A stretch of 64,000 bases of DNA from Candidatus Uhrbacteria bacterium (GTDB taxonomy: Bacteria; Patescibacteriota; Patescibacteriia; JACPHY01), in the NCBI GenBank assembly GCA_016188355.1, contig JACPHY010000001.1, positions 38,125 through 102,124 of the forward strand, in the 5' to 3' direction. Both the position numbers and the translations under genes were made by a program. A model generated the notes under the pieces. It was not told the DNA's origin, searched no databases, and worked only from the letters and a program-made list of their open reading frames with translations. Below, piece after piece: positions 6,935 through 60,061 of this stretch (the first letter of the stretch is position 1; the number at the start of each line of letters is the position of its first letter).

Positions 6935-6939
6935 CGTAT

Positions 6940-10005: not shown

Positions 10006-10018
10006 TATTGGTGATCAT

Positions 10019-15364: not shown

Positions 15365-15524
15365 ACCACGCAGGGAGCATCGATGGGACCATACACATCT
15401 CCGTCCCCACCCCACACCTGGAGCATATCGCGAAATCCACAGCGCGACAAGAACACATGGGGGCGGGTGTGTTCGTGATATACTGCAAGGGCATTGTACG
15501 GAGGTAGACTTTGTTGTTTGGCGT

Positions 15525-36592: not shown

Positions 36593-38776
36593 TGTCGCAG
36601 CGCATGGCCTGCCGCAGGTGTCCCGAGCGTGGCATTGTTGGATGCACTACCGGGAACTGCACAAACAGGACATTTTAATATCTCGGGAAGTGGTGTATTC
36701 GGCAATGCGGCGAGCGCGCGCCAGATTATCGCATCGGGAACGGCAGGATTTGGTCGCTTGACCTACAACGAAACCACTGGGAAGGTCCAGCTACAGGATT
36801 CATCGTATGCAAATGATGGCAGCGACGGGCTGACACTCGATGGGAGCAATTTGCATGTGGTGGGCGCGTTGAGTGCTACCAGTCTCGACATCGCCGGCGG
36901 CATCCAGGCAGGATCTGGGAACGTCGCGATTATTGATGGCTCCGGAAAAATTCCTGGAATCTCCTCGACGTATTTTACGAGCCTCTCTGGAGCAAACCTG
37001 ACGGAGCTGAATGCGAGCAACATCTCGACGGGCGCCATTAATATTGCACGTATTCCGAACACGGTGGCTAAGCTAGCATTTCCGGCAAAGTTCACGGGAA
37101 GCGCCAGCGCGGCGTGGGATTACGCCACGCTCGTGGCAAACCCAGCATACGCGGACGAAGATGATGCGCTTATTGCTGCGGGAATGGGTACGAGTGCAAG
37201 CAGTAATGCGGTGTTCCGGGTCGACAAGGAGGGCGACGTGACTGCGGCGAGTAGTCTCTCTGCTCCGATGGTGCAGGGCACGAGGCTCTGTATTAGTGAC
37301 TCCTGTATAGATGGATGGAGTGAAATTCCTGGTGGAGGGGGAGGTGGCGGCGGCAGCTTTGTGCCGCTGCGCGCCAGCGCACCGTCCACCGCCGATACCG
37401 GTCATTTCTACATATCAGGATCTGGCAGAATCGGGAGCACGTTGCAGGTGAACAGCACCGCCGCATCCGCGCTTGACGTTGGTGGCGGCATCAATGCAGG
37501 GACCGGGAACGTCGGAATTATCGACGCATCGGGAAAGATACCCGCCATTTCTTCGACGTATTTCGCGAGCACTGCATTAAATGCGAGCGATCTCTCGAGT
37601 GGTACGGTTGCCGCTGCACGGTTGCCTTCCACGGTGATTCTGGAGGGTGAATCCGGATCCACGCTCACGAATTTGAACGCGAGCAATTTGGCGAGCGGAA
37701 CCGTTTCCGCGGCGCGACTACCCACCTCGATTACGCAGGCTACGACGTTCACTGCGTTGCCGGGTGGAGATACGTGGTCAGGATTTACACCCAGCGTCGC
37801 CATTAATCCAAGATCGGATATTACGAACTCAGGATGGCCGCTCCTTCGCGTGGGGATGAATGATGCGGCCATTTTCACGGTACTTGGATCAGGATCGGTA
37901 TCCGTTTCCGGAGGAATTTTTGCGGGTACGTCATCGGGAACGGGAGTGCAAATCGTCAATGGTTCGGGAAAAATACCCGAAATTTCCTCCACGTATTTCA
38001 GTAGTGTATCTGGAGCCAACCTCACCAACTTGAACGCGGCGAACCTCACCGGCACCATTGATGCGGCTCGATTGCCGACGCTCACGAACTTGAACGCGAG
38101 CAATTTGGCGAGCGGAACCGTTTCCGCGGCGCGACTACCCACCTCGATCACGCAGGCGACAACTTTTGCGGCGACACCGAGCGGTGCCGGTGTGTTGCAG
38201 GGTGCGTTAGCAGTGAATCCGGCGAGCGCAGGGTCGGATCGCATCCTGTTTGGTGTGGCGGTGAATGGTGTATCGAAGCTGAAAGTGGATGCAGAGGGCG
38301 ATGTGGAGGCCGCGAGTAGCCTGAAGGCACCGTCGCTATGTTTGGGGAGCGATTGTCGGACCTCCTGGCCGTCCGGTGGTTCGAGCAATGCGGTGAGTTT
38401 GCAGTCTGGCGGATTGACTGCGCAGACTGGTGGTTTATCGGTAACGGGAGAGGGACGGTTTGGGTCGATATCGGTGGACGATCTTGTGGTGTCAAATTCC
38501 TTCTCCGCGCCGACGATCGAGACTGATGGAGAATTTTTTTGGAAGGGCGGTCCATTGATTTCGGGGACGCGCGAGGTGGTGAATAGCGAACCTAGTACTA
38601 CGGGTTCTGCGATGGCTAGGTGTCAGTCGGGATACCTTTTGACGGGCGGTGGGTGTATGTGTAATGGCCCATTGAAGGCCACATGGCCATCGTCTGATGT
38701 TGCGGAGGCATGGCAATGCGTCGGGACGTGCTCTCGGATCACGGCGTATGCAATTTGCTTGAAGAAGACCCAATAA
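34427..38776 (+). CDS. 3' part (~1440 aa) of the giant secreted repeat protein. Many ~40-aa repeats of G(S/T)GNVxIVNAxGKIPxISSTxFANLSGSNLTxLNAxxLxxGTVNAARLP and recurring xLCIGxDCRxxWP Cys pairs. Real reading frame begins ~34452 after the frameshift.
   Basis: Open frame to 38776. Internal near-identical DNA repeats (34309-34560 = 35501-35754; 35178-35313 = 36453-36592). C-terminal Cys-rich module resembling that of 32537-33562. Confidence 0.6.
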   Translation: MQRISREIAADQALFGVLVGSAGKFLIDNEGDVVAVGSVKAPSFCIGDDCKSSWAAVATGSPVVQLQSATPGTAQDGHLNISGTIRGTQLCLGGECKTTWSEIAGTSVSLQGSYPGTADAGNFHVSGSGRVGTDLAVIGTTTLGAAGGSSTVLNAVGSNFYLNGEGNIQLRVGTAGAATTEKFSLNNGANAEIFSLDETGALDVAGGIVAGTGNVQIVNATGKINNISSTTFANLSGSNLTTLNATQLTTGTVNAARLPSTMTQATTFTGVPTGTGVLQGSLIANPASATANYALLGVAAAGDVAAAGRLCIGSDCRSAWPAGILLQDSLPGTAQTGNFHITGGAVLDGALSSATLNVAGGITAGSGSVGIIDSTGKIPELSSTYLANLSGANLTSLNAANLTGDAAADQALFGVLVGSAGKFLIDNEGDVVAVGSVKAPSLCMGDDCKSRWSDVTAGTVLLSSTRPGSQQDGHINITGDVRSGALITTEYIASLGPIGWGPIGGPAGSLQWNESTVQMGAYSNNDVHIITGGDQPRVQIQHATGNVGIGSAPSPDYRLNVGGTLNATRICINGDCQTAWPAGGAVGNFVPLRASAPTTADAGHFYISGSGRIGDALQVDSTGATALDVAGGIVAGTGNIQIVNAAGKIPVLSATTLANLTGSNLTNLNASQLAAGTVNAARLPSTMTQATTFTGVPTGTGVLQGSLIANPASATANYALLGCRSAWPAAGVPSVALLDALPGTAQTGHFNISGSGVFGNAASARQIIASGTAGFGRLTYNETTGKVQLQDSSYANDGSDGLTLDGSNLHVVGALSATSLDIAGGIQAGSGNVAIIDGSGKIPGISSTYFTSLSGANLTELNASNISTGAINIARIPNTVAKLAFPAKFTGSASAAWDYATLVANPAYADEDDALIAAGMGTSASSNAVFRVDKEGDVTAASSLSAPMVQGTRLCISDSCIDGWSEIPGGGGGGGGSFVPLRASAPSTADTGHFYISGSGRIGSTLQVNSTAASALDVGGGINAGTGNVGIIDASGKIPAISSTYFASTALNASDLSSGTVAAARLPSTVILEGESGSTLTNLNASNLASGTVSAARLPTSITQATTFTALPGGDTWSGFTPSVAINPRSDITNSGWPLLRVGMNDAAIFTVLGSGSVSVSGGIFAGTSSGTGVQIVNGSGKIPEISSTYFSSVSGANLTNLNAANLTGTIDAARLPTLTNLNASNLASGTVSAARLPTSITQATTFAATPSGAGVLQGALAVNPASAGSDRILFGVAVNGVSKLKVDAEGDVEAASSLKAPSLCLGSDCRTSWPSGGSSNAVSLQSGGLTAQTGGLSVTGEGRFGSISVDDLVVSNSFSAPTIETDGEFFWKGGPLISGTREVVNSEPSTTGSAMARCQSGYLLTGGGCMCNGPLKATWPSSDVAEAWQCVGTCSRITAYAICLKKTQ

Positions 38777-38815
38777 GGTGCTCCAATGAGCATTGCCCTC
38801 CATACAGCAGCACGC

Positions 38816-40261
38816 ATGCAGTTGCGCTTCCATAACAGTCTTCATCGCCGCACCGAATCATTCCGGCCCCACAAGGGCCGGACGGTGCGCATGTATACGT
38901 GTGGGCCCACGGTGTATGACTTTGCGCATGTGGGCAATCTTCGGACGTACCTGTTCGAGGATGTGTTGAAACGCGTACTCCTGCGGCAGGGATACCGCGT
39001 TCGGCACGTCATGAATATTACGGACGTTGGTCACCTGACCGACGATGCGGATCAGGGCGAGGATAAGCTCGAGCGTGCTGCGGCGCGGCAGCAAAAATCC
39101 GCAGCGCAGCTGGCGGCATTCTATACGCGAGCATTTCTCAAGGACCTGCATCGCCTCCACGTGTTGCCTGCGGACGATCTCCCGCGTGCGACTGCGTACA
39201 TTCCGCAGCAGATCGCGTTGGTGCGGCGTCTCGAGCGCCTCGGTTACACGTACGTGACGAGCGATGGGGTGTACTTCGATACCACGAAGTTTGCTCCATA
39301 CGGGACCGCGTTCGGCGGGCAGGCGCTCACGGAAAAGGAGGCGGGGGCGCGTGTGGAGGTGCGGGGCGAGAAGCGCTCTCCCCATGACTTCGCGCTCTGG
39401 AAATTGACGCCGCCGGGTGTTCGTCGGCAACAGGAGTGGGATTCCCCGTGGGGACGCGGATTCCCGGGCTGGCATCTCGAGTGTTCTGCGATGGGCCGCG
39501 CGCTCCTCGGGCAGCCGTTCGATATCCACTGCGGCGGCATTGATCATATTCCCGTCCATCACACGAATGAAATTGCCCAATCGGAGGCGGCGTATGGAAA
39601 GCCGCTCGCTCTGTGGTGGTTACATGGCGCATTCCTGACCGTGGAGGGGAAGCGCATGGGAAAATCCGAAGGCAATCTCATCACGATTGATCAGTTGGAG
39701 TCGCGTGGAGTGGATCCACTTGCGTATCGCTATTTGGTTCTGGGTGCGCATTATCGCTCCGCGCTCAACTTCACGCAGGAGGCGGTGACGGGTGCGCAAT
39801 CTGCATTGGATCGGCTGCGGGATATCGCACGGGCACTCCCGCGTATTCCGTATGCAGGGAGCGACGCGAACGGGATTGTCCGATTGCAGCGCATGATGCA
39901 ATCGGTCGACGGCCGGAAAGCGCAAGAGCATCTGGATGCGGCATTTGCGGATGATTTGGATACGCCGCAGGCACTCGCGGTGCTGTGGGACGCGGTGCAA
40001 AATGATCAGATTGCGCCATTGGAGCGTGCGGCGTTGGTTGCATCCGCGGATCAGGTGTTTGGTCTGGGGTTGGCGGAGCTCCTCGGAAAGCCGGTGCGTA
40101 TTCCGCGCGCCGTCCGGGCGCTGGCCGATGCACGGGAGGCTGCTCGTATCGCAAAGGACTGGGCACGCGCAGACGTGCTCCGTGCGCAAATTGATGCACT
40201 CGGATTTCGGGTCGAAGATACGAAACGAGGACCAGTGATCAAGAAGCAGACGAACAGTTGA
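38816..40261 (+). CDS. cysS: Cysteine--tRNA ligase (ORF open from 38786; start MQLRFHNSL at 38816)
   Basis: MYTCGPTVYDFAHVGNLRTY (HIGH region HVGN). KMSKS (KMGKSEGN). C-terminal DALRAQ domain. Confidence 0.9.
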   Translation: MQLRFHNSLHRRTESFRPHKGRTVRMYTCGPTVYDFAHVGNLRTYLFEDVLKRVLLRQGYRVRHVMNITDVGHLTDDADQGEDKLERAAARQQKSAAQLAAFYTRAFLKDLHRLHVLPADDLPRATAYIPQQIALVRRLERLGYTYVTSDGVYFDTTKFAPYGTAFGGQALTEKEAGARVEVRGEKRSPHDFALWKLTPPGVRRQQEWDSPWGRGFPGWHLECSAMGRALLGQPFDIHCGGIDHIPVHHTNEIAQSEAAYGKPLALWWLHGAFLTVEGKRMGKSEGNLITIDQLESRGVDPLAYRYLVLGAHYRSALNFTQEAVTGAQSALDRLRDIARALPRIPYAGSDANGIVRLQRMMQSVDGRKAQEHLDAAFADDLDTPQALAVLWDAVQNDQIAPLERAALVASADQVFGLGLAELLGKPVRIPRAVRALADAREAARIAKDWARADVLRAQIDALGFRVEDTKRGPVIKKQTNS

Positions 40262-40324: not shown

Positions 40325-41248
40325 CTATAGCCACCGTTTCACCCTGAAATAGCCGAGCATGCCTACGGCGACCGCGGCCATAGCGCCGGCAATGCGCCAG
40401 AATCCATTTGGGTCATCGACGAAGGGAGTGCCATCGGCGCGGATGGCGAGAATGGCAGCAATCATGGAGATGGGGAAGGTGAGCACTCCGATGACCGCGA
40501 GTGCCGTGCTCACGCGGCTGGTGTGATAGCTGACGAGCGACTGCTGTGCCGCATGAATATCGCTGATCGCGCTCGTGTAATCATCGAGGAGTACGGTGAT
40601 CTCGCGCGCGGCGTCACGGAGTCGAGCGGCCCGGTGTTGTTGCTCCGCGTCCCGTGTATTGGTCAGCGCGGTGCAGAGCCGCTCAATAGCAACGACATTG
40701 GGGAGAAACGCTCGGCGGAACGTGACGACATTTCTCCGGAGGAGTGCAATGTGGACGAGTTGCGTCGATTGGACATGGGCACGGATTTCGCGTTCCTGTT
40801 CCTCGATATCATTTTGGAGGTGCACGAGAATGGGGGAGCAGTACAGGAGGAATCGTTCGAGGAGGAGGAGCGCAAAGGTGTGTGCATTGCGTAATGCCGC
40901 GGTGGCCTCGGGGTCCTGATCGGCGATCGCGGTTTCCAGCTCCGTGAACACCGGAATTCCATTTTCGTGCACGGTAATGATCGTGCGCGGCAGGATGAAG
41001 ATGTCCACTTCTTCGCTTCGGATAGCCCGTTCCGCGCGATCATATCGCGGAAAGAGCAGGATGGAAAAGATGGAATTCGTCCGGATTTCTGTTTTCGGGC
41101 GCTGTTGCGGGGGGAGGCAGTCGCGGATGTCTCGGGGGTCGAGATGGGGAAATTGTGCGTGGAGCGCATGCAGGCGCGATACGTCTCGATCCGTGCAATG
41201 GATCCATTCGATGGTGGTACGCGATCGGCGCGTGGGAGACATATACAA
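40325..41248 (-). CDS. CorA-family divalent cation transporter-like protein (GMN motif not conserved)
   Basis: Cytoplasmic alpha/beta plus coiled-coil domain, two C-terminal TM helices, terminal ...FRVKRWL like CorA KRKNWL. The canonical YGMNF is replaced by AILAIRAD. Confidence 0.55.
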   Translation of the reverse strand: MYMSPTRRSRTTIEWIHCTDRDVSRLHALHAQFPHLDPRDIRDCLPPQQRPKTEIRTNSIFSILLFPRYDRAERAIRSEEVDIFILPRTIITVHENGIPVFTELETAIADQDPEATAALRNAHTFALLLLERFLLYCSPILVHLQNDIEEQEREIRAHVQSTQLVHIALLRRNVVTFRRAFLPNVVAIERLCTALTNTRDAEQQHRAARLRDAAREITVLLDDYTSAISDIHAAQQSLVSYHTSRVSTALAVIGVLTFPISMIAAILAIRADGTPFVDDPNGFWRIAGAMAAVAVGMLGYFRVKRWL

Positions 41249-41325: not shown

Positions 41326-41805
41326 GTGCGTATGGAAGGCCCTCTGCCGGAGCATGCCCGTGGACTCGAACGAGTGGATCATGCGCTCGATCGGCGTGAA
41401 AATCAGGCGGGACCGGTAGCGGTGGAGCGCATGGCGGACCGCGCAGCAAGTGCTGCCCCGGTTGCGCCGCCGGCCGCCCCGGTTGCGCAGGCGGCTGCTC
41501 CGCAAAAATCGCCGCTGCGTGAGGAGATTGAGCAGGCGCTCGCAGATGATCGACTCCGAAAATTGTATCTCCACCTCGCACCGGCGGTGCAGGCGAGTTT
41601 TCGTGAAGCGGCGCTGCGGCTTGCGGAGCGCATCGAGCGTATGCTCGCGAGCGGAAAACTGGATATTCATGATCTCCATGAGGGGATTACGAATTGGCTT
41701 CGCGTCATTCCGAATGTAAATCGGTGGTTTCTGCTGCAGGAAGCCAAAGTGAAGACCGACGCTATCCTCGTACTTCAAGCGAAACGCACCGCTGCTCGTG
41801 GGTGA
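41326..41805 (+). CDS. Hypothetical protein (Ala/Pro-rich N-terminus, helical C-terminus). Alternative start ATG 41431 with SD ggtggag.
   Basis: ORF immediately upstream of and co-oriented with the VirD4-like ATPase (stop 41805, next start 41814). Confidence 0.35.
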   Translation: MRMEGPLPEHARGLERVDHALDRRENQAGPVAVERMADRAASAAPVAPPAAPVAQAAAPQKSPLREEIEQALADDRLRKLYLHLAPAVQASFREAALRLAERIERMLASGKLDIHDLHEGITNWLRVIPNVNRWFLLQEAKVKTDAILVLQAKRTAARG

Positions 41806-41813
41806 GCTGTCCT

Positions 41814-44249
41814 GTGCCCATTGATTTCCTCATCGCCGCCATCGTGCTCCTCCTCGCGATCGTGTGTATCGTTGTGGTGCTGTTTATTGTTCGTGCGATT
41901 GCGCGTCGCTCCGCCATGCTGCGCGCCGCCTTCGATCTCGTGGTGCTCCAGGTGTTGGTGCCAAAGGATGCGCAGGGTGGCGACAAAGGAGATCAAAGCA
42001 TTCAAAAAATTCAAGAGGCGATCGCGAAAACGGAAGTATTTTTTACGTCGATCGGCGGGCTTCGTGCGCAGCGGGGCATGGGTTCTTGGTTTCGCGGTCG
42101 TACGGATCACATCGCATTTGAAATCGTGGCCCATGACGGCCAGGTGAAGTTTTTTGTTGCCGTCCCGAACGCCTTGCGCTCCTTTTTGGAGGAGCAATTG
42201 CATGCGCAACGATCAGACGCGTACATTGATGTCGCCAGGGATTACAACATCTTTCAACCGACCGGCGTGGTGCTGGGTACGACGCTCACCCTGAAACGGT
42301 CGGGGTATTTTCCAGTGAAATCATATAAGAAGTTGGACGCGGATCCGCTGGATGGACTCACGAATGCAATGAGCAAGGTCACGGAACTCGAGGGAGCAGC
42401 GATCCAGCTGGTGGTGCGCTCTGCGCGGAAGGAGTGGCGATCGGGAGGGGTGAGCATTGCGTCGAAGATGCAGCAGGGAAAGACGCTCGACGAGGCGATG
42501 GGCGGTGGATGGATGTCCGGACTCTGGAAGAGTGTGGGGGCGGCATCGGGAACGGCATCCAAACAACCGGAAAAAATACACCAGCTGTCGCCGATGGAGC
42601 AGGAGATCGTGAAAGGGCTCGAAGAGAAGGCGGCGAAGTTTGGGGTGGACGTGAATGTACGGGTGCTCGTGTCCGCAGAAACGAACGACCGAGCCAAAAC
42701 GCTGCTGGCCTCCATCACGCAGGCATTCGCGCAGTACAACATTCCGCAGTACGGCAACATGTTTGTGACCGGCGGCACATCCTCTGCGCCGAAACTCATC
42801 GAGCAGTTCATCTACCGGAAATTTGATGAGAAGAAGCGGTTGGTGCTCAACGTGGAGGAGATGGCGAGTGTGTGGCACTTGCCGCTGCCGACAACGGAAA
42901 CTCCGACGGTGCAATGGCTGTCCTCCCGTCGGTTGCCGCCGCCCGTGAACATGCCGCAGGAGGGTGTGATCCTTGGAGAGTCCAACTACCGAGGGAAACG
43001 GGTGCTCGTGCGTTTGAAGCGCGCGGATCGGCGTCGGCACGTGTACGCCATTGGAGGTACGGGGACAGGAAAAACGACGGTCATGGAGAACATGTGTGTG
43101 CAAGATATCCGGGCGGGGGAGGGGGTGTGCGTCATTGACCCGCACGGCGAATTTGCGGAGCACATGCTGGCGAACGTCCCGAAAGAGCGCGCGGATGACG
43201 TGATCTATTTCGATCCGTCGGATGTGGAGCGCCCTCTGGGACTCAACATGCTTGAGGCGGATACGCCAGAGGCGCAGGATTTTGCCACGCAGGAAATGGT
43301 GGCCATTTTCTATAAGCTCGTCACGGATCCCTCCATGATTGGTCCGATGTTTGAGCATTACATGCGGAATGCGATGCTCACGCTCATGTCCGATCCGAAA
43401 AATCCGAGCACCATCGTGGAGATCCCGCGCATTCTCACCGATCCAGAGTTCCAGAAGCTCAAATTAAAGAACGTTACCGACCCGATTATTCGGGCGTTCT
43501 GGGAAAAGGAATTGCCGCAGACTTCCGGTCAGACCAAGGGAGAGATGCTGCCATATTTGGTTTCGAAGATTGGGCGATTCCTCGAAAATACGATGATGCG
43601 GAATATTATCGGGCAGCAGCGCTCCGCGTTCGATTTTCGGCAGATCATGGATCAAAAGAAAATCCTGCTCTGCAACTTGAGTAAGGGAAAGATCGGTGCC
43701 ATGAACTCAGATCTCCTAGGACTCATCATCATCACGAAGCTCCAAATGGCTGCATTGGCGCGTGCGAATGTGCCGGAGGATCAGCGACCGGATTTTTTCT
43801 GCTACATGGATGAGTTCCAGAATTTTATTACGGATTCCATCGCGATCATTCTTTCCGAGGCACGGAAATACCGTCTGGACCTCATCATGGCACACCAGTA
43901 CATCGCACAGCTGGTCAAAAGCAATGATACGCGCGTGCGTGATGCGGTGTTTGGCAACGTCGGGACCATTATCTCCTATCGTATCGGTGTAGATGATTCT
44001 GAATTGATCGCGAAGCAACTGGCGCCAGTAGTGTCGGAATTCGATGTACTGAATATCGAGAAGTTCAATGCGTATGCACGCATCATGATCGACAACACTG
44101 CACAGAAAGCATTCAACATGCGGGTGTTCGCCCCTTCATTTGGCGATCAGCGGATGTTCGATGCGCTACGTCAGCTGTCTCGACTGAAGTACGGTCGCGA
44201 TCGCGCTATTGTCGAGACGGAAATTTTGGAACGATCGCAGCTCGGGTGA
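41814..44249 (+). CDS. Membrane-anchored VirD4/TraG/TraD-like (type IV coupling protein / FtsK-HerA superfamily) ATPase with a ~350-aa N-terminal extracytoplasmic/unknown domain. GTG start; ORF open from 41694.
   Basis: N-terminal TM IDFLIAAIVLLLAIVCIVVVLFIV. Walker A HVYAIGGTGTGKTT. DPHGEF (T4CP DPxGE). Walker B FFCYMDEFQNF. C-terminal helical lid. Confidence 0.6.
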   Translation: MPIDFLIAAIVLLLAIVCIVVVLFIVRAIARRSAMLRAAFDLVVLQVLVPKDAQGGDKGDQSIQKIQEAIAKTEVFFTSIGGLRAQRGMGSWFRGRTDHIAFEIVAHDGQVKFFVAVPNALRSFLEEQLHAQRSDAYIDVARDYNIFQPTGVVLGTTLTLKRSGYFPVKSYKKLDADPLDGLTNAMSKVTELEGAAIQLVVRSARKEWRSGGVSIASKMQQGKTLDEAMGGGWMSGLWKSVGAASGTASKQPEKIHQLSPMEQEIVKGLEEKAAKFGVDVNVRVLVSAETNDRAKTLLASITQAFAQYNIPQYGNMFVTGGTSSAPKLIEQFIYRKFDEKKRLVLNVEEMASVWHLPLPTTETPTVQWLSSRRLPPPVNMPQEGVILGESNYRGKRVLVRLKRADRRRHVYAIGGTGTGKTTVMENMCVQDIRAGEGVCVIDPHGEFAEHMLANVPKERADDVIYFDPSDVERPLGLNMLEADTPEAQDFATQEMVAIFYKLVTDPSMIGPMFEHYMRNAMLTLMSDPKNPSTIVEIPRILTDPEFQKLKLKNVTDPIIRAFWEKELPQTSGQTKGEMLPYLVSKIGRFLENTMMRNIIGQQRSAFDFRQIMDQKKILLCNLSKGKIGAMNSDLLGLIIITKLQMAALARANVPEDQRPDFFCYMDEFQNFITDSIAIILSEARKYRLDLIMAHQYIAQLVKSNDTRVRDAVFGNVGTIISYRIGVDDSELIAKQLAPVVSEFDVLNIEKFNAYARIMIDNTAQKAFNMRVFAPSFGDQRMFDALRQLSRLKYGRDRAIVETEILERSQLG

Positions 44250-44261
44250 GTTGCATTCAAG

Positions 44262-44840
44262 TTGATTGGTTGTATGTCGATGGCGGTCGCGATCGTGATG
44301 CTCGTTATTCTCGTCATTGTATTGGTCGCGGTGGCGGCATTTGAGGGCGTGCTCGCATGGAGCTTATTTGTGACTGAGGCTCCTTGGGTGCCACTGTCGA
44401 CGCATGGGATTGCGGCGCTCCTCGAGGGTTTGGAGCCCCTCACCTCCGGCGCGGTGGTGGTGGAGCTCGGTTCTGGAGATGGGCGCGTGTTGCGGGCGGT
44501 AGTGGATCGGTATCCGCAGGCGCGGGGCATTGGCTTGGAGCAGTCTCGGCTGCTCACCTGGTTTGCGCGGATACGAAACCGTGGGCGTGCGCTCGAATTT
44601 CGACACGTCGATTGTTTTCGGGAGTCATGGGTGGGGGCGTCGTGCGTGTTTTGTTATCTCCTTCCGCCCTCCATGTCGCTCGTGGCGAATAAAGCGTTGC
44701 GAGAACTCGCCGCCGATGCGCGTGTATTCACGCTGGGATTCCCCATTCCGGGATTGCATCCATTGCGGGTGATCGCGCATGAAAACCGAGAACCGTGTTA
44801 CGAGTACCGGGTTGGGGATATGCGAGATTCTGCGGAGTAA
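44262..44840 (+). CDS. Small class I SAM-dependent methyltransferase with N-terminal TM helix
   Basis: TM VAIVMLVILVIVLVAVAAF. Motif I VVELGSGDGRVL. Post-I acidic GLEQS. Confidence 0.55.
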   Translation: MIGCMSMAVAIVMLVILVIVLVAVAAFEGVLAWSLFVTEAPWVPLSTHGIAALLEGLEPLTSGAVVVELGSGDGRVLRAVVDRYPQARGIGLEQSRLLTWFARIRNRGRALEFRHVDCFRESWVGASCVFCYLLPPSMSLVANKALRELAADARVFTLGFPIPGLHPLRVIAHENREPCYEYRVGDMRDSAE

Positions 44841-44883
44841 GTCCGTTGCGGTATACTAGAAATAGCTTTGCGCGTCAGAGAAG

Positions 44884-44945
44884 GAGACCTCTGCGAACAT
44901 TCAGATTCGCGCCAGGAACGCGAAAGCAATTTTTGTAGAGGTCTC
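44884..44945 (+). repeat. Internally deleted 62-bp copy of the MITE-like element (both terminal inverted repeats retained, central ~100 bp missing)
   Basis: gagacctctgcgaacattcagattcgcgccaggaacgcgaaagcaatttttgtagaggtctc matches the two ends of the 162-bp copies. Confidence 0.7.
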
Positions 44946-44971
44946 TAAGGAATTTTGCGGCATCGCATTTT

Positions 44972-47470
44972 TTGGTTTTGCAAACGTTTTTGTATATGGG
45001 TACGCCTGAATTAGTTTCCTCTGCGCGTGTCGCAGTTCCTCAGGAGCGCGTCCCGGAGACGAAGATCCGGCCGGAATTGCGCGAGGAGCCTACGCGGACT
45101 GACCGTGAACGTCTCCAGCGTGCGCAGGAAGAGTTGGAAATGCTCCAGCGGGATGCAGGTCTGCCGGGTGCTGGTCCTCGGCGCCGCATGGCGGCGCTCA
45201 AGCGATTAACGGGGCGCGTGGTCGAGGATGCGGCGGAGTTGGATCGCGCATACGCGGAGGAGATTGTTCGCATGACCGCGCGTGTCCGTGCGTTGGAACG
45301 ATCACCGCTCCCGGCAATTCGTGAGGAATTGCTGCTGGAGTATCTGTCCGCTGCAGATCAGGAGGCGTTCCGGGAAGGTCGATTGCAGTCATGCGTGGAT
45401 ATCGTGGAACGGGACGCGGCATGGCTGCGGGAAGTAGATGTGGAGCGGACGTATCACGATGATGCGTACTATCGTGCAATGTTCGGTACGGAATCAGGAT
45501 TCACGTACCGTGCACATACCCAAGAGCGGCACAATCGAAAAGAACCCATTGCGGAGACGAAGCATGAGTTTATTGATCGCGTGGTTCGTGAGCGAGAGGA
45601 TCGGTTGCGCGAGACACAAGAAGCGATGCATGTGCTCGGCATGGTTCGTGGACGGGACGGTCTCATTCGTCTCCATACGTTTGATCGACCGCACGATCCC
45701 GGCGTGTTGATCGATGCGGCACTTGCGCATGCGTTCGTGCAAGAGCATCGGCGCATTGAGGAGGCTGCGCGCATGGAAGGGGCGCAGGATACATCGGAGC
45801 GTATCCATGCGGATCGTGCTCGTCTACGGGACAATGTGCAGCGGCTCTTGGGTCGTGCCCCAGAACTCACGGTCACGCCGGAGGTTCTGTTCGAGCCGGA
45901 GGTGTGGCAGGATACGGTTGCGTTGGCGCTTGTGCCGACGGAACGCGATGCAGTGCCAGCCAACGCGGATGCGCCACCGGAACGGCGGCGAGATTTGCTC
46001 CGTGTTGTTCCTGGGGGAAGCGTCGAAGAGTCGGACGATTTTGAGATTACCGAGGATACGGAGCATGGATTGCCGGAAGCACAGAAGGAGGAGCATGTTG
46101 CGCCTGTTGCGTCCCCTGCGGTAGCGGAGCGTCGCGCGACTCCTCCGGATGTGGAGCTGGGACTTCGGGTGTTTGGTGTTCTCGACCGCGCGAAGGCGGA
46201 GGGCTGGAGCGCGAATCGTGCGGAATATGCGGTGCGGGTGACGCTGCAGACCGGCACGGAGCACGTATCCGCCGCCCGATTACAGGAATTGCAGGATATC
46301 GTCGCGGAAGATCTCGCGCAAATGCGGCGCACGGAGACGGAGGGAGGGCGGGGCACTGATACTACGGAGCAGCTTCCAGAGACCGCGCTGAGCGAAAAGC
46401 AGGCTCGTGCGCTGCGACGCTCCACCCGGTTGCAGGAAGCGCGGGATGCCTTGCGGCGTATGAAGACCGAGCTGGATGCGCACCAGGCTCGTGCGCTGCA
46501 AGATTCCGCACATGAGGATGGGCGAGAACGTCCGTCACTTGCGGGGGGAGAGGGAGCTGAGGTCGATCGGGCGCCCATTGGACCGGAGGCGGTTCGGGAG
46601 GCGCGCATCGCATATGCCACCGAGCGGCAGCGGCCATCAAAGTGGGGATGGATCGCGGAGCGGGCGAAGGGCGTTCTCACGGCAGGTTTTTCGGAATTTC
46701 GTCATTTTGTGGGATACGGGCGAGCGGCGTGGCGAGGCGAGCGAGAAATCGACACCTCGTTCCGTGCGCTGCGTGCTGAGGCGGGCGCAACTCCGGAGGC
46801 ACAATCTGCCCGTATTGGACGTCTGGTGGATGAGGCGGAGTTCCATGTGATGCAGCGTCTCACCCATTACCGGGATGAGTTCGGTGACGGCGTGCTCACG
46901 GAGGATCGCATGCAGAAGTTCCGTGAACGGCTGCATCGAAAACTCCATGCGCTCCATGACCAACAGGAGCAGGCGGATCGTGGAGAATTTCGGAATCTCA
47001 TTTTACAGTCATTCGATCCATCCTGGTGGCGTCGTGGGGTGTATGGGGTGGTAGAGTTCGCGCTTGCCGCATCCGGTATCCGCCTGCTCATTGATCATGC
47101 ATTTACGGCGACGCCGATATTGGAGCAGGTGACGCAATCGCCGCTGCCAAAATTACCAGATACTCCACCCGATCTCGTGCGTACCATGCAGGGGACCGTA
47201 TGGGACACGATGCGTCAGATGTTCCCGGGTGCGAATCATACGCAGCTCACCGATGTGGTACGGAAGGTGATGGAACATAATGGCATCGTCGATCCGACGC
47301 CCGGCTCGACCGGATTTACGCATGCGAATGGCACGCCCAATCAGTGGGCAGGGGAGCACGTGCGCCATTTGGTGGAAAGTGGGCGCAATTGGGTGGATGC
47401 GACCAAAATGCCAGAAGGATTTCCGCTTCGTATGCCGAAGGAGGTGCTGCAGTTGGTGGGTTCGCTCTAG
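44972..47470 (+). CDS. Large (~830 aa) highly charged (Glu/Arg/Ala-rich) hypothetical protein. No TM, no recognised catalytic motif; start uncertain (TTG 44972 or ATG 44996).
   Basis: Single uninterrupted ORF of 2.5 kb. Compositional bias and predicted long helices. Confidence 0.45.
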   Translation: MVLQTFLYMGTPELVSSARVAVPQERVPETKIRPELREEPTRTDRERLQRAQEELEMLQRDAGLPGAGPRRRMAALKRLTGRVVEDAAELDRAYAEEIVRMTARVRALERSPLPAIREELLLEYLSAADQEAFREGRLQSCVDIVERDAAWLREVDVERTYHDDAYYRAMFGTESGFTYRAHTQERHNRKEPIAETKHEFIDRVVREREDRLRETQEAMHVLGMVRGRDGLIRLHTFDRPHDPGVLIDAALAHAFVQEHRRIEEAARMEGAQDTSERIHADRARLRDNVQRLLGRAPELTVTPEVLFEPEVWQDTVALALVPTERDAVPANADAPPERRRDLLRVVPGGSVEESDDFEITEDTEHGLPEAQKEEHVAPVASPAVAERRATPPDVELGLRVFGVLDRAKAEGWSANRAEYAVRVTLQTGTEHVSAARLQELQDIVAEDLAQMRRTETEGGRGTDTTEQLPETALSEKQARALRRSTRLQEARDALRRMKTELDAHQARALQDSAHEDGRERPSLAGGEGAEVDRAPIGPEAVREARIAYATERQRPSKWGWIAERAKGVLTAGFSEFRHFVGYGRAAWRGEREIDTSFRALRAEAGATPEAQSARIGRLVDEAEFHVMQRLTHYRDEFGDGVLTEDRMQKFRERLHRKLHALHDQQEQADRGEFRNLILQSFDPSWWRRGVYGVVEFALAASGIRLLIDHAFTATPILEQVTQSPLPKLPDTPPDLVRTMQGTVWDTMRQMFPGANHTQLTDVVRKVMEHNGIVDPTPGSTGFTHANGTPNQWAGEHVRHLVESGRNWVDATKMPEGFPLRMPKEVLQLVGSL

Positions 47471-47479
47471 TGCACATGT

Positions 47480-47812
47480 ATGACGATCCAGGAAAAAGCT
47501 CGAGAACTTGGTCAGCGCCTTGCGCATTCCACATTGCCGCAGGTGCTGAAAGATGCGATTTTGGAAGCGCTTCCTCAGAGTACGGAGCGTGAGGTAGATG
47601 CCTTGCTCCTGGCGCTACGCAACGAGGACGCACAGCTGCAGCAGCTTGAAGACGCGTCGCGCCAGTTTGTGGCTCGGACTGCGGAACAGTGGGACGCACT
47701 TGCCGCAGAGGAGCAGGCGGTTGTGGATGCGGCGGTCGAGGAATTTGTTACGGAAACTGCATCGAGTGTGCTTGCGCATGCGGTGCAGCGAGGCGCAGTG
47801 ACTCGTTCGTGA
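47480..47812 (+). CDS. Small acidic helical hypothetical protein (110 aa)
   Basis: ORF 10 nt after the preceding gene. Coiled-coil-like LLALRNEDAQLQQLEDASRQFVARTAEQWDALAAEEQAVVDAAVEEF. Confidence 0.35.
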   Translation: MTIQEKARELGQRLAHSTLPQVLKDAILEALPQSTEREVDALLLALRNEDAQLQQLEDASRQFVARTAEQWDALAAEEQAVVDAAVEEFVTETASSVLAHAVQRGAVTRS

Positions 47813-47858: not shown

Positions 47859-47890
47859 GAATCCCGTACCGATGATTCGGTACGGGATTC
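47859..47890. terminator. Perfect 13-bp-stem hairpin gaatcccgtaccg/atgatt/cggtacgggattc between convergent genes
   Basis: Direct complementarity. Between the 47480-47812 (+) and 47925-48785 (-) gene ends. Confidence 0.55.
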
Positions 47891-47924
47891 GGGTGGTCAT
47901 CGCTGCAGCTGTGGTGTCGGGGTG

Positions 47925-48785
47925 CTATGGGAGCCGTCCCCAGAACAGCTTCAGTGCTGCTTGTGCGGCGCGATGTTCCCGTGCGTCTTCTATGGGTGAC
48001 GATGTGCAGCGCACGTCGCTGAATTTGGCGTGCGCGGCGCGTCGATCGTGGTGCGCAAATGCGACTGCTCCTGCCACGATCAGGTCATGGAGCGGGTTCG
48101 AGGAATGGCGTTCCTGGTCCGCGAGAAAGTAGAGCGTTTCCGAGACCAAGTTTCTGATGTTGGTGTTGTCGCGCACCTCTGTTTCGGCGAGTGCGTCGAT
48201 GTAGTGGACGAGTGCCTCATTGGGGCGCCTCAGGACGTCGAGGACGCGCGCAAGTTGAAAGTGTACGGCGGGATCATGGCGGTCGTGCCGGAGTGCCTCA
48301 CGGAGCACGACCTTTGCCGCATTGGGATCGCGTAATTCACGGAGCGCAATGCCCAGCGCTGCATTCAATGCGGCCAGTCCTCGAGTGAACTGTCCTTGTT
48401 CCCATGTGGTGGAGGTGCGGTGATCACGCCGTCCCATGGTTGCTGATTTGATCGCATGTCCTGCGACGCGTTTTGCCTCCTCGTGCCGACCGAGGTCAAT
48501 GAGGAGGTGTGCGCGTTTGAGCGGCAGGCAGATGGATTGGGGATAGCGGTCCATCTGCTCTTCGGTCACGGTGAGTGCTTCGTGGAGTCTCTGTTCCTGC
48601 TCCAAGGACTCGATACGTTTGAGCGCGGTGTCGACCGCAACTTCCCAGTGCGTGCAAAGCAGGTCGAGCGCAGCATTGGATGCGGGCATGGCCACCATTG
48701 ACGGGTCTCCTTTGGGTTGGAAATGGACGTGGGCACGAGATCCTCTACGCAGCGCAACTATATCCCGAGATATTTTTGTTGTCAA
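47925..48785 (-). CDS. TPR-like helical repeat hypothetical protein
   Basis: Repeated helix-turn-helix pairs (RVLDVLRRPNEALVHYIDALAE, LALNAALGIALRELRDPNAAKVVLREALRHD). Confidence 0.4.
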   Translation of the reverse strand: MTTKISRDIVALRRGSRAHVHFQPKGDPSMVAMPASNAALDLLCTHWEVAVDTALKRIESLEQEQRLHEALTVTEEQMDRYPQSICLPLKRAHLLIDLGRHEEAKRVAGHAIKSATMGRRDHRTSTTWEQGQFTRGLAALNAALGIALRELRDPNAAKVVLREALRHDRHDPAVHFQLARVLDVLRRPNEALVHYIDALAETEVRDNTNIRNLVSETLYFLADQERHSSNPLHDLIVAGAVAFAHHDRRAAHAKFSDVRCTSSPIEDAREHRAAQAALKLFWGRLP

Positions 48786-48824: not shown

Positions 48825-49745
48825 GTGGGTAAGCGGGAAAGAAAATGCGAAAATAAGCGCAGGAATACGTTATGGGACGGTAGACGGATGCACGTTGACG
48901 CGATGGGAGCTGCCCCGTACGATGGAAGAGTGACTTCTTGTCTTTTCGCTATGGAAAATCAATACCCACCCCCGTTTCCGTTTGATGCGATGGACGGCGC
49001 ACTCGGCGCAGCGGATGATCTCGGCGTCCCTGATCTTTTTCCCATTGTGGCGTCCGCGTCCCCGAGCGATCGTTCCACGGTATTGCATGAGGTTCGTCGA
49101 AAATTAGAGGACGTGCACGCACAGATTCGCGCACTCATTGGCAGCATCGACCGCGAGTTGGAAGGAAATCCGCTCCCGCGTACGGCCATGCCCGATGCGC
49201 ATTACCCCTCGTCGCTTTCGCATGAGGTGCCACGTCCTTCTATGTCGAATCAACGTCCTGTGGATCCGCTCCCCGGCGGTCTCCAACGAGAGGATGAAGA
49301 TGCCCTCCGGGTGATCGAGGGTGTGTTCGATGGGCAGAACATGGTGGGTCCTGATGGGAAGCAATACAGCGTTCCTGCGAATTACGCATCGAAATCGAAG
49401 CTCGTGGAAGGGGATATTCTCAAGCTGCGTATCACCTCACGGGGTGCGTTTGTGTACAAGCAAATTGGTCCCATTGCGCGGGATCGGCGTATCGGCGCAC
49501 TCGAGCGCGATGATGTGACCGGAGAGTATGTTGTATTGGTTCCCGATGTGGAAGGGGATTTGAGCGCATTGACCCGCGCGATTGTGGCGAAGGGCGACCT
49601 GCCGCCGGTTTCCTATAAACGATATCGAACGCTTCGCGCATCCGTTTCTTTCTACCGCGGCGCACCAGGAGATGAGGTGGTGATTTTGGTTCCGAAAGAC
49701 GCACCATCGACGTGGGCGGCAGTGGAGAATGTTATTAAGCGATGA
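48825..49745 (+). CDS. Hypothetical protein upstream of dnaX (alternative start MENQYPPPF at 48951) with an internally duplicated C-terminal beta module
   Basis: GDILKLRITSRGAFVYKQIG and GDEVVILVPKDAPSTWAAV look like a duplicated small barrel. Confidence 0.4.
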   Translation: MGKRERKCENKRRNTLWDGRRMHVDAMGAAPYDGRVTSCLFAMENQYPPPFPFDAMDGALGAADDLGVPDLFPIVASASPSDRSTVLHEVRRKLEDVHAQIRALIGSIDRELEGNPLPRTAMPDAHYPSSLSHEVPRPSMSNQRPVDPLPGGLQREDEDALRVIEGVFDGQNMVGPDGKQYSVPANYASKSKLVEGDILKLRITSRGAFVYKQIGPIARDRRIGALERDDVTGEYVVLVPDVEGDLSALTRAIVAKGDLPPVSYKRYRTLRASVSFYRGAPGDEVVILVPKDAPSTWAAVENVIKR

Positions 49746-49864: not shown

Positions 49865-51481
49865 ATGTCCGTCCTCTATCGAAAATACCGGCCACAGAAA
49901 TTTTCCGACGTGGTAGGACAGGCGCATATCACCACGACGTTGATTGCGGCGCTTGCGCGCGATCGGATTGCGCATGCATATCTTTTTTCTGGTCCGCGCG
50001 GCGTAGGGAAAACAACAACAGCGCGACTGCTCGCAAAGGCCGTCAACTGCGCGTCGCGCGGGTCGGAGACGCGCACCGATTCGGATTCGGGGTCGTGGGA
50101 CGGAGAGCCATGCAATACGTGCGTATGTTGTCGGGAGATTGTGGAGGGTCGATGTCTGGATGTAATTGAAATCGATGCGGCATCGCATACGGGCGTGGAT
50201 CATGTCCGAGAACAGGTGATCGATCATGCGCGCATTGCCCCGGTTCGTGCCCCGCGGAAGGTGTTCATTATTGATGAGGTGCACATGCTTTCGGCGAGCG
50301 CGTTCAATGCGCTCCTGAAAACACTGGAGGAGCCGCCGTCACAGGTGCTCTTTATTTTAGCCACGACCGAGTTGCATCGCCTACCGGAGACCATCCGTTC
50401 GCGCTGTCAGCAGTTCATGTTTCGGCGCGTTGCGCCGGAGGTGTTGACGGAACGGCTGCGGGAGCTGGCACATGCGGAGGGCGTGGCGGTAGATCCGGAG
50501 GTATTCCCGTTGGTCGTGCGTGCGGCAGATGGATCGGTTCGAGATGCGGAGAGCTGTTTTGGGCAACTACTTTCGCTCGGTGGGGAGCGGGTGACCGTGG
50601 CGGATGCGATGCTTGTCGTGCCTCGATCCAATGCGGCGTCCGCGCAAGCGCTGGTGGATGTGGCGATTGCGGGAGATTGCGCGCGTCTCCTTGCGGAGTT
50701 GGATCGTGCGGAGTCCGAGGGGGTAGATCCGGAGGCGTACGTCCGCGATTGCATCCTGTCGCTTCGTGATCGCTCGCGTGACGCCGTTCATGCTGCGGAT
50801 CGTGGTTGCGCGGCAATGGTGACGAAGCTCCTGCGTGCTGGTCTTGCGCTCGTGGATAGCGTGGGACGGGTGGATCGCGCTTTTTTCCTGATAGAGTCAG
50901 CGTTTCTGGAGGTGATGTTGAGTACATCGAGCGCGCCGTCGTTGCCGGCAGCACCGCGGTTGGTTACTCCTTCGGTTCCGGTATCGCCACCTTCTCCTCC
51001 AGCACCGGAACCTCCGATCGCGCCTGCGGTATCGGCGCCGGAGACCGAAATGGCGGTGGTATCGCAGGAGCCGGATGTTCCTGCGTCTGCGGGGGTATCT
51101 CCTGTTGCTCCGGTTTTGGCCGTTCCGATCGATACGCTCGATCGGATTCGTGTGGGATGGTCTGCACTACTGGCGCAGCTTGCGGAGGTGAATCGTGCGC
51201 TGCCGTACCTCCTGGAGGGCGGTCGACCGCAGCGGATGGAGGGAGATACGTTGACGGTCGGTTTTCGCTATCGTCTCCATGCGGAGAAGGCGCGACAGCC
51301 TGCAGCGCTTGATGCGATTACCCAGGCGATCCATGGCATGATTGGGGCTCCGGTCCGCGTGCAAATGGCAGTGGTGAGCGCGGAGGAGTTTGCGGTGCTC
51401 GAATCGAGTACTCGTCCTGCCACGGGAGATGCGGTGGCGGATGCGGCACTTGAAGTATTTGGTGGACGCGTCGTAGAATAA
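49865..51481 (+). CDS. dnaX: DNA polymerase III subunit gamma/tau
   Basis: YRPQKFSDVVGQAHI, FSGPRGVGKTTTARLLAKAVNC, Zn-module CxxC...C, IIDEVHMLS, SRCQQF. Pro/Ala-rich linker. Confidence 0.9.
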   Translation: MSVLYRKYRPQKFSDVVGQAHITTTLIAALARDRIAHAYLFSGPRGVGKTTTARLLAKAVNCASRGSETRTDSDSGSWDGEPCNTCVCCREIVEGRCLDVIEIDAASHTGVDHVREQVIDHARIAPVRAPRKVFIIDEVHMLSASAFNALLKTLEEPPSQVLFILATTELHRLPETIRSRCQQFMFRRVAPEVLTERLRELAHAEGVAVDPEVFPLVVRAADGSVRDAESCFGQLLSLGGERVTVADAMLVVPRSNAASAQALVDVAIAGDCARLLAELDRAESEGVDPEAYVRDCILSLRDRSRDAVHAADRGCAAMVTKLLRAGLALVDSVGRVDRAFFLIESAFLEVMLSTSSAPSLPAAPRLVTPSVPVSPPSPPAPEPPIAPAVSAPETEMAVVSQEPDVPASAGVSPVAPVLAVPIDTLDRIRVGWSALLAQLAEVNRALPYLLEGGRPQRMEGDTLTVGFRYRLHAEKARQPAALDAITQAIHGMIGAPVRVQMAVVSAEEFAVLESSTRPATGDAVADAALEVFGGRVVE

Positions 51482-59371: not shown

Positions 59372-59531
59372 GACCTCTGCAAAAATCCAGATTCGCGCCA
59401 GGAACGCGCTGTTCGGCTGCGCTGCGTTCCTCGACCGCTCACGAGATCCGCTGGATATCGCTCGGGTCTGCGTCGCGCAGCTCGCTCGCACATCACGTCC
59501 CTGGCGCGAAAGCGATTTTTGTAGAGGTCTC
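59370..59531 (+). mobile_element. Second full-length 162-bp MITE-like element. Left end overlaps the recJ stop codon (TGA); right end stops 2 nt before the rnhA ATG and provides its SD.
   Basis: ~93% identity to 12677-12838, with the same terminal inverted repeats. Confidence 0.75.
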
Positions 59532-59989: not shown

Positions 59990-60061
59990 CGGGTGTGGCG
60001 ACGCGGTGATGGTTTTCCCCCGAAGCCCTTCGAGATTCGTGGTACATTGGAGAAAACCGTT

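Follow-up and report, generated by a model that had tools for sequence, protein, structure and literature searches.

The closest described relatives of the locus treated here are the orphan homologues of the VirD4-like type IV coupling protein (T4CP) of Patescibacteria. In the retrieved passages of Quinonero-Coronel et al. [quoted passage not shown] This essential T4SS has been described as having no recognisable coupling and relaxase proteins (Wang et al., PMC10633639). According to the supplementary tables of the latter paper, S. epibionticum encodes two T4CP-like proteins, SEML1_0142 (1019 aa, essential, with an essential 139-aa hypothetical gene 13 nt upstream) and SEML1_0293 (921 aa, non-essential, with PF10412 at residues 402-719), and beside them SEML1_0096, an essential FtsK of the canonical kind that bears the 4TM, alpha and gamma domains. 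We analysed a stretch of 64,000 nt from the chromosome of a Candidatus Uhrbacteria bacterium of the Patescibacteria, or candidate phyla radiation (CPR) (contig JACPHY010000001.1, positions 38,125 to 102,124; hereafter the window), in which a membrane ATPase of this kind lies within a block of five co-oriented genes.

An earlier reading made from the letters of this DNA (the sequence-only reading) had combined the ATPase with a membrane methyltransferase and a highly charged 832-aa protein in what might be one translocation or defence module. The gene order that it described held: after a divergent corA-like gene, the list of open reading frames (ORFs) contains five co-oriented ORFs on the plus strand, all at the positions that it gave. 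The idea that the five genes form one conserved module did not hold. The results showed that the block is a mosaic of three separate units lying side by side, not one system, and that the only widely conserved unit consists of a small gene (small159) and the membrane ATPase. The second unit is the methyltransferase, and the third is a pair of genes encoding the 832-aa protein (big832) and a 110-aa protein (acid110). The junctions from small159 through the ATPase to the methyltransferase, and that between big832 and acid110, measure 8-12 nt, and the gap between the methyltransferase and big832 measures 131 nt. The first unit comprises the following features:

41326..41805, plus strand: small159, a protein whose N-terminus is disordered and Ala/Pro-rich and whose ~90-aa C-terminal region is conserved; partner of the ATPase, conserved on its upstream side
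41694-44249, plus strand: ORF of the ATPase; annotated product of 811 aa from the GTG at 41814, 100% identical to the Candidatus Uhrbacteria protein P0001
41814..41903, plus strand: ATPase residues 1-30, a single N-terminal transmembrane (TM) helix and then an Arg-rich stretch, from hydropathy
41904..43028, plus strand: ATPase residues 31-405, DUF8128 domain with a modelled fold like that of the VirB4 N-terminal domain
43029..44249, plus strand: ATPase residues 406-811, T4CP-like P-loop motor with Walker A GGTGTGKT, Walker B YMDEFQNF, EARKYRL and AHQY, from Pfam and PDB matches

The ATPase had been described as a protein with an N-terminal TM segment and a T4CP-like motor bearing GGTGTGKTT, DPHGEF and YMDEFQNF, and both parts of this description were confirmed. 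Hydropathy reached a maximum of 3.65 over residues 1-36, and the helix is followed by RAIARRSAMLR; the rest of the protein past the helix is probably cytoplasmic. The motor exceeded the Pfam gathering thresholds for TrwB_AAD_bind (41.4 bits against 20.5, E = 1.1e-10), T4SS-DNA_transf (40.2 against 20.1, E = 2.5e-10) and TraG-D_C (25.8 against 22), and DUF87 passed too. The best matches among PDB sequences were TrwB (2e-6) and DotL (2.6e-4), then HerA; neither VirB4 chains (up to E = 10) nor FtsK chains were among the PDB sequence matches. The protein fell far below every cut-off of the NCBIfam equivalogs TraD, CD1115, TrbC, CedD and VirB4, with T4CP scores of 45.9 against 366, 36.8 against 250, 32.5 against 647 and 24.1 against 800. 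For VirB4 there was also no Pfam match of that type, and NCBIfam VirB4_plasma scored 21.7 bits against a cut-off of 590.

A folded domain of ~370 aa lies between the hydrophobic helix and Walker A (residue ~414). The sequence-only reading had recognised a domain of ~350 aa here, but its label 'unknown' has to be corrected: the domain is Pfam DUF8128, and its structural model matches the VirB4 N-terminal domain. Residues 31-405 were modelled from a 60-sequence alignment with a predicted local distance difference test (pLDDT) score of 86.3 and a predicted template-modelling (pTM) score of 0.83. In a Foldseek search with this model, the top 13 matches were all TrwK/VirB4 chains (E 1.5e-6 to 1.4e-4, probability 1.00). 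Because no P-loop protein other than VirB4 was among the Foldseek matches, we infer that the similarity is to the N-terminal domain of VirB4. Thus, the ATPase is predicted to consist of one TM helix, a module like the VirB4 N-domain and a coupling-protein-like motor.

This architecture resembles two known types of T4SS ATPase, and differs from each. It shares with VirB4/TrwK, the T4SS ATPase of R388, a layout of two parts of ~400 aa each, an N-terminal domain and a C-terminal RecA-like ATPase, but it has a motor that scores as a T4CP, its own N-terminal TM helix, no family match at the sequence level and no VirB3, VirB6 or VirB8 among the scanned neighbours. It is like TrwB/VirD4/TraD in being a membrane-anchored P-loop motor of the FtsK/HerA superfamily that exceeds the Pfam thresholds. 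However, those proteins have a short two-TM anchor, whereas the window ATPase has one TM helix and the ~370-aa VirB4-like domain; in addition, it scores below the equivalog cut-offs, has no relaxase or T4SS neighbours and is a core chromosomal gene, not a gene of a mobile element.

A word-index search returned 3,451 relatives of the ATPase. The precomputed architecture was identical in 120/120 listed homologues and is that of P0001, PF26449 (DUF8128) with PF10412, PF02534 and PF12696. The listed relatives from beyond the immediate Uhrbacteria clade (Kuenenbacteria, Parcubacteria group, Patescibacteria group) were 52-58% identical. An alignment of 20 homologues had a mean column identity of 63%, and residues of Walker A (G414, G417, G419, K420), Walker B (D666, E667), EARKY (682-686) and AHQY (693-696) were invariant in it; all catalytic motifs of the motor are intact. 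Similarity was also found in phages. The phage family phrog_5156 matched along the full length of the ATPase (5.9e-73, residues 69-808), and Bacillus phage G gp156 (JN638751.1 91252-93072) and SPO1-like phage proteins (L173 3533-6256) were ~20% identical to it over residues ~178-760, a stretch that takes in the motor and the latter half of the N-domain. These phage proteins and phrog_5156 are all unannotated, and only ~20% identity links them to the window ATPase.

These findings place the ATPase in the already reported Patescibacteria family of orphan T4CP-like ATPases with DUF8128. As far as the retrieved passages of PMC12102498 go, the orphan VirD4-like homologues agree with it in family, NCBI name, Pfam architecture, a chromosomal site far from virB4, the lack of a relaxase and phylum-wide spread, and nothing essential differs. 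What is added here beyond those passages is the VirB4-like fold of the N-domain, the small upstream partner, the synteny with dnaX and with a protein of predicted oligonucleotide/oligosaccharide-binding (OB) fold, and the optional methyltransferase. The PF10412 match of the window ATPase (405-723) is very close to that of SEML1_0293 (402-719). The name and the Pfam coordinates favour SEML1_0293 as its orthologue, and the small upstream gene resembles the arrangement of SEML1_0141 and SEML1_0142. Literature searches for the term 'DUF8128' and for later papers naming the locus tags SEML1_0142 or SEML1_0293 returned none.

To describe the surroundings of the family, a pattern scan of species-representative genomes was made, which yielded at least 597 ATPase relatives; 80 loci were kept with up to 10 kb of flank per side, and their six-frame ORFs were searched with the neighbours in the window. 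A homologue of small159 lay immediately upstream on the same strand in 38 of the 80 loci, mostly overlapping the ATPase start or 4-7 nt away from it. Downstream, a gene that we call p306 was found in 35 loci and dnaX in 39 at strong E-values, a 40th dnaX match (L062, 9.5e-11) being upstream. Restricting the count to loci with enough flank gave 34/69 for small159 and 34/67 for p306. The methyltransferase was directly downstream in 5/80 loci, and iterated searches with hidden Markov models (HMMs) found big832 and acid110 in 0/80. The recurring neighbour clusters were cysS, corA, small159, p306, dnaX, aspS, secY and similar. The loci with small159 and p306 are those in which the ATPase is at least ~42% identical to that of the window, and they are named as Uhr-, Magasanik-, Buchanan-, Komeili- and Doudnabacteria. 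A reciprocal look-up from p306 on long contigs recovered the order small gene, DUF8128 ATPase, p306, dnaX in 3/3 cases; in about 9 loci, dnaX directly follows the ATPase without p306. The conserved flanking features in the window are as follows:

38786..40261, plus strand: cysS, cysteinyl-tRNA synthetase (Pfam tRNA-synt_1e); upstream syntenic anchor, found upstream of the ATPase in 27/80 loci
40325..41248, minus strand: corA-like Mg2+/Co2+ channel (Pfam CorA 9.2e-36), divergent from the five-gene block; equivalent upstream position in 12/80 loci
48951..49745, plus strand: p306 (annotated length 264 aa), a neighbour conserved downstream of the ATPase
49865..51481, plus strand: dnaX, DNA polymerase III gamma/tau (Pfam DNA_pol3_delta2); downstream syntenic anchor

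The small159-ATPase pair is a vertically inherited, phylum-wide operon in the arrangement cysS-(corA)-small-ATPase-(MTase)-p306-dnaX, where MTase is the methyltransferase. The conserved core is small-ATPase-(p306)-dnaX, and half of it lies outside the interval that the sequence-only reading had treated as the block, p306 included. Conservation of the neighbours with the ATPase had been proposed there as a check, and the outcome was divided: small159 is conserved with it, but most of the other proposed partners are not, and the true ones lie partly outside the block.

The small159 protein is Ala/Pro-rich as had been claimed (Ala 18.9%, Pro 6.9%). It matched nothing in Pfam, NCBIfam, PADLOC or PHROGs, its profile gave nothing significant against PDB sequences, and Pfam scans of 19 homologues gave noise only. 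Hydropathy revealed no hydrophobic segment, and small159 is therefore not VirB3-like. Among the more distant loci (Moran-, Staskawicz-, Saccharibacteria and others), the small159 position is taken in 17 (L049-L080) by another gene of ~150 aa, here smallB; its product is disordered at the N-terminus, and its C-terminal part carries a conserved motif similar to GVIxAVxVAKKMNDPYILDxLHD. A relationship between smallB and small159 was rejected or is undetectable (hhalign probability 0.2%). The smallB-ATPase arrangement resembles the essential SEML1_0141/0142 pair of S. epibionticum.

For p306, at least 7,999 homologues were found, none with a Pfam domain; p306 itself had no match in Pfam, NCBIfam, PADLOC or PHROGs, and its profile gave nothing significant against PDB sequences. 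In its structural model, a long helix near the N-terminus (residues 38-71) is joined by a disordered linker to a beta-rich C-terminal domain, which has pLDDT above 90 and is predicted to be an OB/cold-shock-like beta-barrel. The invariant aromatic residues F126, Y139, Y145 and F167 and the basic residues K137, K148, K150, K158, K170, R177 and R179 would be compatible with nucleic-acid binding. The p306 of the window clade carries an insertion of ~23 residues (P0123 residues ~196-218) that includes a helix at 201-212 and is absent from homologues outside the clade.

Such a setting raises the question of whether the ATPase is a housekeeping translocase that handles the chromosome, FtsK-like in segregation or coupled to replication, in which case the adjacency to dnaX would reflect its role. 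The gene keeps a stable synteny with dnaX, cysS and further housekeeping genes, the identity of 52-58% to listed relatives of other candidate phyla makes the family resemble a core gene, and membership of the FtsK/HerA superfamily, with the DUF87 and HerA matches, points in the same direction. The ATPase is also like FtsK/SpoIIIE in its membrane anchor and housekeeping chromosomal context. However, FtsK has a 4-TM anchor and alpha and gamma domains, whereas the window ATPase has a single hydrophobic helix and no such domains; no Pfam match to FtsK_SpoIIIE, FtsK alpha or FtsK gamma was found at E <= 0.01, and T4SS ATPases, not FtsK, gave the best matches in both sequence and fold. The grouping with housekeeping FtsK/SpoIIIE that the sequence-only reading had named as its own refutation was thus not observed, yet the gene is a phylum-wide core gene in housekeeping synteny. 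In addition, S. epibionticum has the canonical essential FtsK SEML1_0096 besides its two T4CP-like proteins, which rules out the ATPase as a replacement for FtsK. A role in chromosome handling therefore seems quite unlikely to us.

The second unit of the mosaic is the methyltransferase:

44262..44840, plus strand: membrane-anchored class I S-adenosylmethionine (SAM) methyltransferase of the archaeal protein-lysine methyltransferase (aKMT) type, from PDB matches and the hydrophobic helix

It is 192 aa long from a TTG start and 181 aa in the Logan gene call. The N-terminal hydrophobic helix and the motif I ELGSGDGRV, the latter conserved in 7 homologues, agree with the TM-anchored class I enzyme that had been proposed. 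Over residues 36-176, it matched the crenarchaeal aKMT structures 5fa8 (4e-6) and 5jwj (7.3e-6), and the likeness to aKMT consists of this alignment and the conserved motif I. It differs from aKMT in its N-terminal membrane helix, its bacterial (CPR) host and a score below the equivalog cut-off (NCBIfam prot_lys_mtase_Arch, 2.2e-7, 31.1 bits against a cut-off of 200). The motif IV position reads LLPPS/LTPxAM, with no conserved (D/N)PPY.

The association of this enzyme with the ATPase, which had been noted from this one locus, recurs but is optional. It directly follows the ATPase in 8 genome loci (the window, L083, L003, L004, L006, L007, L024 and L171, the last 35% identical with E = 2e-23). 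In a rough neighbour-joining tree of the ATPases, used only for the spread of methyltransferase presence, the loci bearing it fell in several separate clades (at least 4 lineages), and the close ATPase relatives L084, L086 and L015 have no methyltransferase. A metagenome scan from the methyltransferase side returned 80 loci, and an ATPase lay upstream in only four, L092, L097, L098 and L112, which hold 4 of the 5 best-scoring methyltransferases; the family is widespread, and its other members, which are more distant, lie at other sites. These results indicated that the pairing is real but optional and that the methyltransferase is a recurrent accessory follower.

The combination of an ATPase and a methyltransferase might also suggest a methylation-based anti-phage defence module, either like the methylation-associated defence system MADS or a novel system. 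PADLOC matched the ATPase to mad8 (4.5e-12, profile positions 26-254 of 314), with weak HerA matches too, and the methyltransferase to mad2 (5.8e-8, profile positions 270-394 of 492). MADS comprises eight genes, mad1-8, in an operon that includes an N6-adenine DNA methyltransferase, and it requires mad2-4 and mad6-8 (bioRxiv 10.1101/2023.03.30.534895). Both matches here are generic and partial, and the other five proteins scanned matched no mad model; membership of MADS was therefore rejected against the system definition. The enzyme is a 190-aa protein of the aKMT type whose motif IV position is not a conserved (D/N)PPY, the Pfam and NCBIfam scans found no nuclease or other effector adjacent, and the ATPase, unlike a gene of a defence island, is a phylum-wide core gene in fixed housekeeping synteny. 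The domain matches that favour a defence module are generic, and we consider such a module highly improbable.

The third unit is the pair at the end of the block:

44972..47470, plus strand: big832, 832 aa from the TTG at 44972, annotated as 824 aa from the ATG at 44996; first gene of a two-gene cassette
47480..47812, plus strand: acid110, acidic protein (net charge -9), constant partner of the big832 family

The acidic nature of acid110 and the composition given for big832 were both borne out: R, A and E make up 12.5%, 11.4% and 11.2% of big832, which is 31.8% charged with a net charge of -24. Neither protein matched anything in Pfam, NCBIfam, PADLOC or PHROGs, which agrees with the earlier statement that big832 has no detectable domain as far as curated domains are concerned; that statement needs correction in that big832 has a C-terminal module common to about 70 protein clusters. 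Two blocks of big832 are conserved, an N block (~105-308) and the C-terminal module (~530-829), which features a moderately hydrophobic helix, a motif like WGWIKERAKG and the sequence LAKYRDEFG. By exhaustive profile search, this module was found in 70 representative clusters, 24 of them at E <= 1e-10, and the word-index search returned only big832 itself and one homologue, 55% identical, in the sister genome, where the ATPase is 91% identical.

Was big832 a substrate or nucleic-acid-binding partner of the ATPase, in one ATP-driven module made of all five genes? The genes are co-oriented and closely spaced, and the sister genome L083 has all five in this arrangement, as does L084 apart from the methyltransferase. 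In the latter, where the ATPase is 77% identical, a 739-aa protein is 35-37% identical to big832 over residues 105-308 and 530-829, and the 108-aa product of the gene that follows it is 49% identical to acid110. Several findings speak against this proposal. First, the two proteins are absent from all 80 related loci, and L086, with an ATPase 65% identical, has no such pair and only a tetratricopeptide repeat (TPR) gene. Second, relatives of the pair lie at unrelated positions: between the L5 and S8 genes of a ribosomal-protein operon (L087, cassette 5250-7482), next to a gene for a PemK toxin and, farther off, one for AbiEii (L088, cassette 113-2427), and after groES/groEL (L089, cassette 6001-8910). 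In each, the big832 relative is followed by a gene for 99-106 aa, homologous to acid110 (hhalign probability 97.7%, E = 1.5e-12), and the ATPase is not nearby. Third, big832 is not a credible dedicated substrate because it diverges far faster than the ATPase (55% against 91% identity between the sister genomes). Fourth, a transposon remnant with a terminator-like hairpin separates the pair from the ATPase-methyltransferase unit. Since the pair recurs elsewhere without the ATPase, big832 and acid110 are an autonomous, fast-evolving two-gene cassette that stands here by chance, and it seems to land in highly expressed housekeeping operons. The five-gene module is accordingly very improbable, and big832 is an unrelated neighbour that gives no basis for inferring the function of the ATPase.

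The elements around this cassette are as follows:

44884..44946, no strand: internally deleted copy of a miniature inverted-repeat transposable element (MITE), between the methyltransferase and big832, with terminal repeats GAGACCTCTGC / ...GTAGAGGTCTC
44906..44934, plus strand: terminator-like hairpin and T-run within the MITE remnant, from a consensus scan (TTCGCGCCAGGAACGCGAA then AGCAATTTTT)
47860-47872 / 47879-47891, no strand: perfect 13-bp inverted repeat GAATCCCGTACCG / CGGTACGGGATTC, between the convergent acid110 and TPR genes
47925..48785, minus strand: TPR-repeat protein (Pfam TPR_19 3.9e-9), a clade-specific insertion on the strand opposite to the block

The truncated MITE reported ahead of the 832-aa gene is genuine: both ends of a 162-nt element are retained, and ~100 bases from its interior are missing. 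The window has two full 162-nt copies (12677-12838 and 59370-59531), which are 94% identical to each other and share these terminal inverted repeats, and a 3' fragment at ~1037-1063. The left end of each full copy is at the stop of the upstream gene, ftsW (11527-12675) and recJ (57578-59371). The hairpin in the remnant might mark the end of a small159-ATPase-methyltransferase transcript, a suggestion to be read with the fact that such scan matches are not enriched over shuffled sequence. The perfect 13-bp hairpin past the block was likewise supported by sequence and by folding (-33.9 kcal/mol, z = -6.7, 0/200 shuffles as good); it has no T-run and was not called by the terminator scan. The TPR gene was found in L083, L084 and L086, and an iterated HMM search found homologues in 0/80 ATPase loci.

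A T4CP-type motor with a MITE remnant nearby could also be what is left of an integrative conjugative element reduced to its coupling protein. For the large ORFs of the window scanned with Pfam, from ~10 to 63 kb, no relaxase, VirB4, VirB6 or integrase family was matched, which upholds the earlier observation that relaxase and VirB genes are missing nearby, and no VirB3-, VirB6- or VirB8-like component was recognised among these ORFs or the recurring neighbour clusters of the related loci. The G+C content of the five-gene region is 0.55-0.60, compared with 0.57-0.63 in the rest of the window, and the very high conservation of the ATPase is atypical of T4CPs of mobile elements. Above all, a decayed element is contradicted because the ATPase keeps the same chromosomal position in many genomes of different candidate phyla, and we give this explanation almost no chance.

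Thus, the explanation that we favour, with moderate confidence, is a three-unit mosaic in which the phylum-wide small159-ATPase operon encodes a membrane-docked translocase. The ATPase would form a membrane-docked ring, as VirB4 and T4CPs do, and ATP would drive a polymer across or to the membrane. The substrate would most likely be single-stranded nucleic acid, and unfolded protein would be less likely; the OB-fold neighbour and the synteny with dnaX hint at nucleic acid. The VirB4-like N-domain may dock the ATPase to a membrane complex, most plausibly the T4SS encoded elsewhere on Patescibacteria chromosomes, with small159 as an adaptor or regulator. The methyltransferase, where present, might methylate a component at the membrane, and p306 could handle nucleic acid on the cytoplasmic side.

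Several points weigh against this explanation. The link of the family to a T4SS or to any substrate is drawn by inference. No T4SS component was found among the neighbours in the window and the inspected loci that were examined by family search, where the recurring clusters are housekeeping or unannotated. An obligatory role in the T4SS is at odds with the dispensable t4cp homologue and essential T4SS of S. epibionticum described in the retrieved passages of PMC12102498. One of the two T4CP-like genes of that organism is essential and the other non-essential (PMC10633639), and either might be the orthologue of the window ATPase. The synteny with dnaX and p306 could be inherited gene order without functional meaning, given the ~9 loci that keep dnaX without p306. 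Finally, the small upstream gene of the distant classes is a different family, with no hhalign similarity to small159.

Some of these points would also fit a stand-alone device for nucleic-acid import or export that is independent of any T4SS, made of the ATPase, its small partner and the OB-fold neighbour and serving DNA/RNA scavenging or a competence-like process. Single strands would be threaded through the ring and taken up by the OB-fold protein. The small share of T4CP homologues near virB4 (148 of 5,713) and the dispensable t4cp homologue beside an essential T4SS, both from the retrieved passages of PMC12102498, are in line with such a device, as are the conserved neighbours p306 and dnaX and a motor of the DNA-translocating TrwB/TraD type. 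However, none of the inspected loci has an adjacent gene for a channel protein of the ComEC or VirB6 sort, VirB4-like N-domains are known from T4SS inner-membrane complexes, and the link to p306 may be synteny only, p306 not being beside the ATPase in the ~9 loci mentioned. We regard the stand-alone device as unlikely, and the membrane-docked translocase remains our preferred explanation.

The scanned large ORFs of the window are, by Pfam, housekeeping genes for the cell wall (mraY, ftsW, murG, a penicillin-binding protein, a Mur ligase, murJ), chaperones (dnaK, dnaJ), replication and translation, and they also include an HD hydrolase, lepA, recJ and, at the far end, pilM; there is no second copy (paralogue) of the ATPase within the window. 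The type IV pilus assembly gene pilM (Pfam PilM_2 2.2e-38) lies at 62288-63364 at the window end and is preceded by a 734-aa ORF (59993-62197) with no Pfam match. Directly 5' of cysS, a 1449-aa ORF (34427-38776) contains internal direct repeats of ~0.7-1.3 kb and has no Pfam match, and a 1657-aa ORF (15213-20186) carries Big, fn3, BNR and CarboxypepD_reg domains; both look like the giant surface proteins typical of CPR bacteria. An inverted repeat with 46-nt arms, 87% complementary and separated by 83 nt (9833-9878 / 9962-10007), lies just past the ORF at 9230-9715, with the second arm overlapping the beginning of another ORF (9935-10456).

Taken together, the window ATPase is a typical member of a known, uncharacterised Patescibacteria family standing beside unrelated lineage-specific genes; the details added here are incremental, and no new kind of system is described. 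A bolder proposal, which we consider rather unlikely, is that the DUF8128 ATPases form a third, Patescibacteria-centred branch of the VirB4/VirD4 ATPases that joins a docking domain of the VirB4 type to a motor of the coupling-protein type, and that they build a T4SS-independent nucleic-acid machine with the small partner and the OB-fold neighbour, the methyltransferase being a lineage-specific regulator. If true, such a machine could explain how DNA or RNA moves across the membrane of these nucleotide-auxotrophic, ultra-small bacteria. Of the Patescibacteria proteins whose function is unexplained, the orphan T4CP-like ATPase is one of the more conserved; the literature has noted its existence and not its role. 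The present analysis adds as leads an N-domain model that matches VirB4, a small gene almost always immediately upstream, an OB-fold protein and dnaX downstream, and a recurrent aKMT-like add-on, and these leads may be used to guide experiments in genetically tractable Saccharibacteria.

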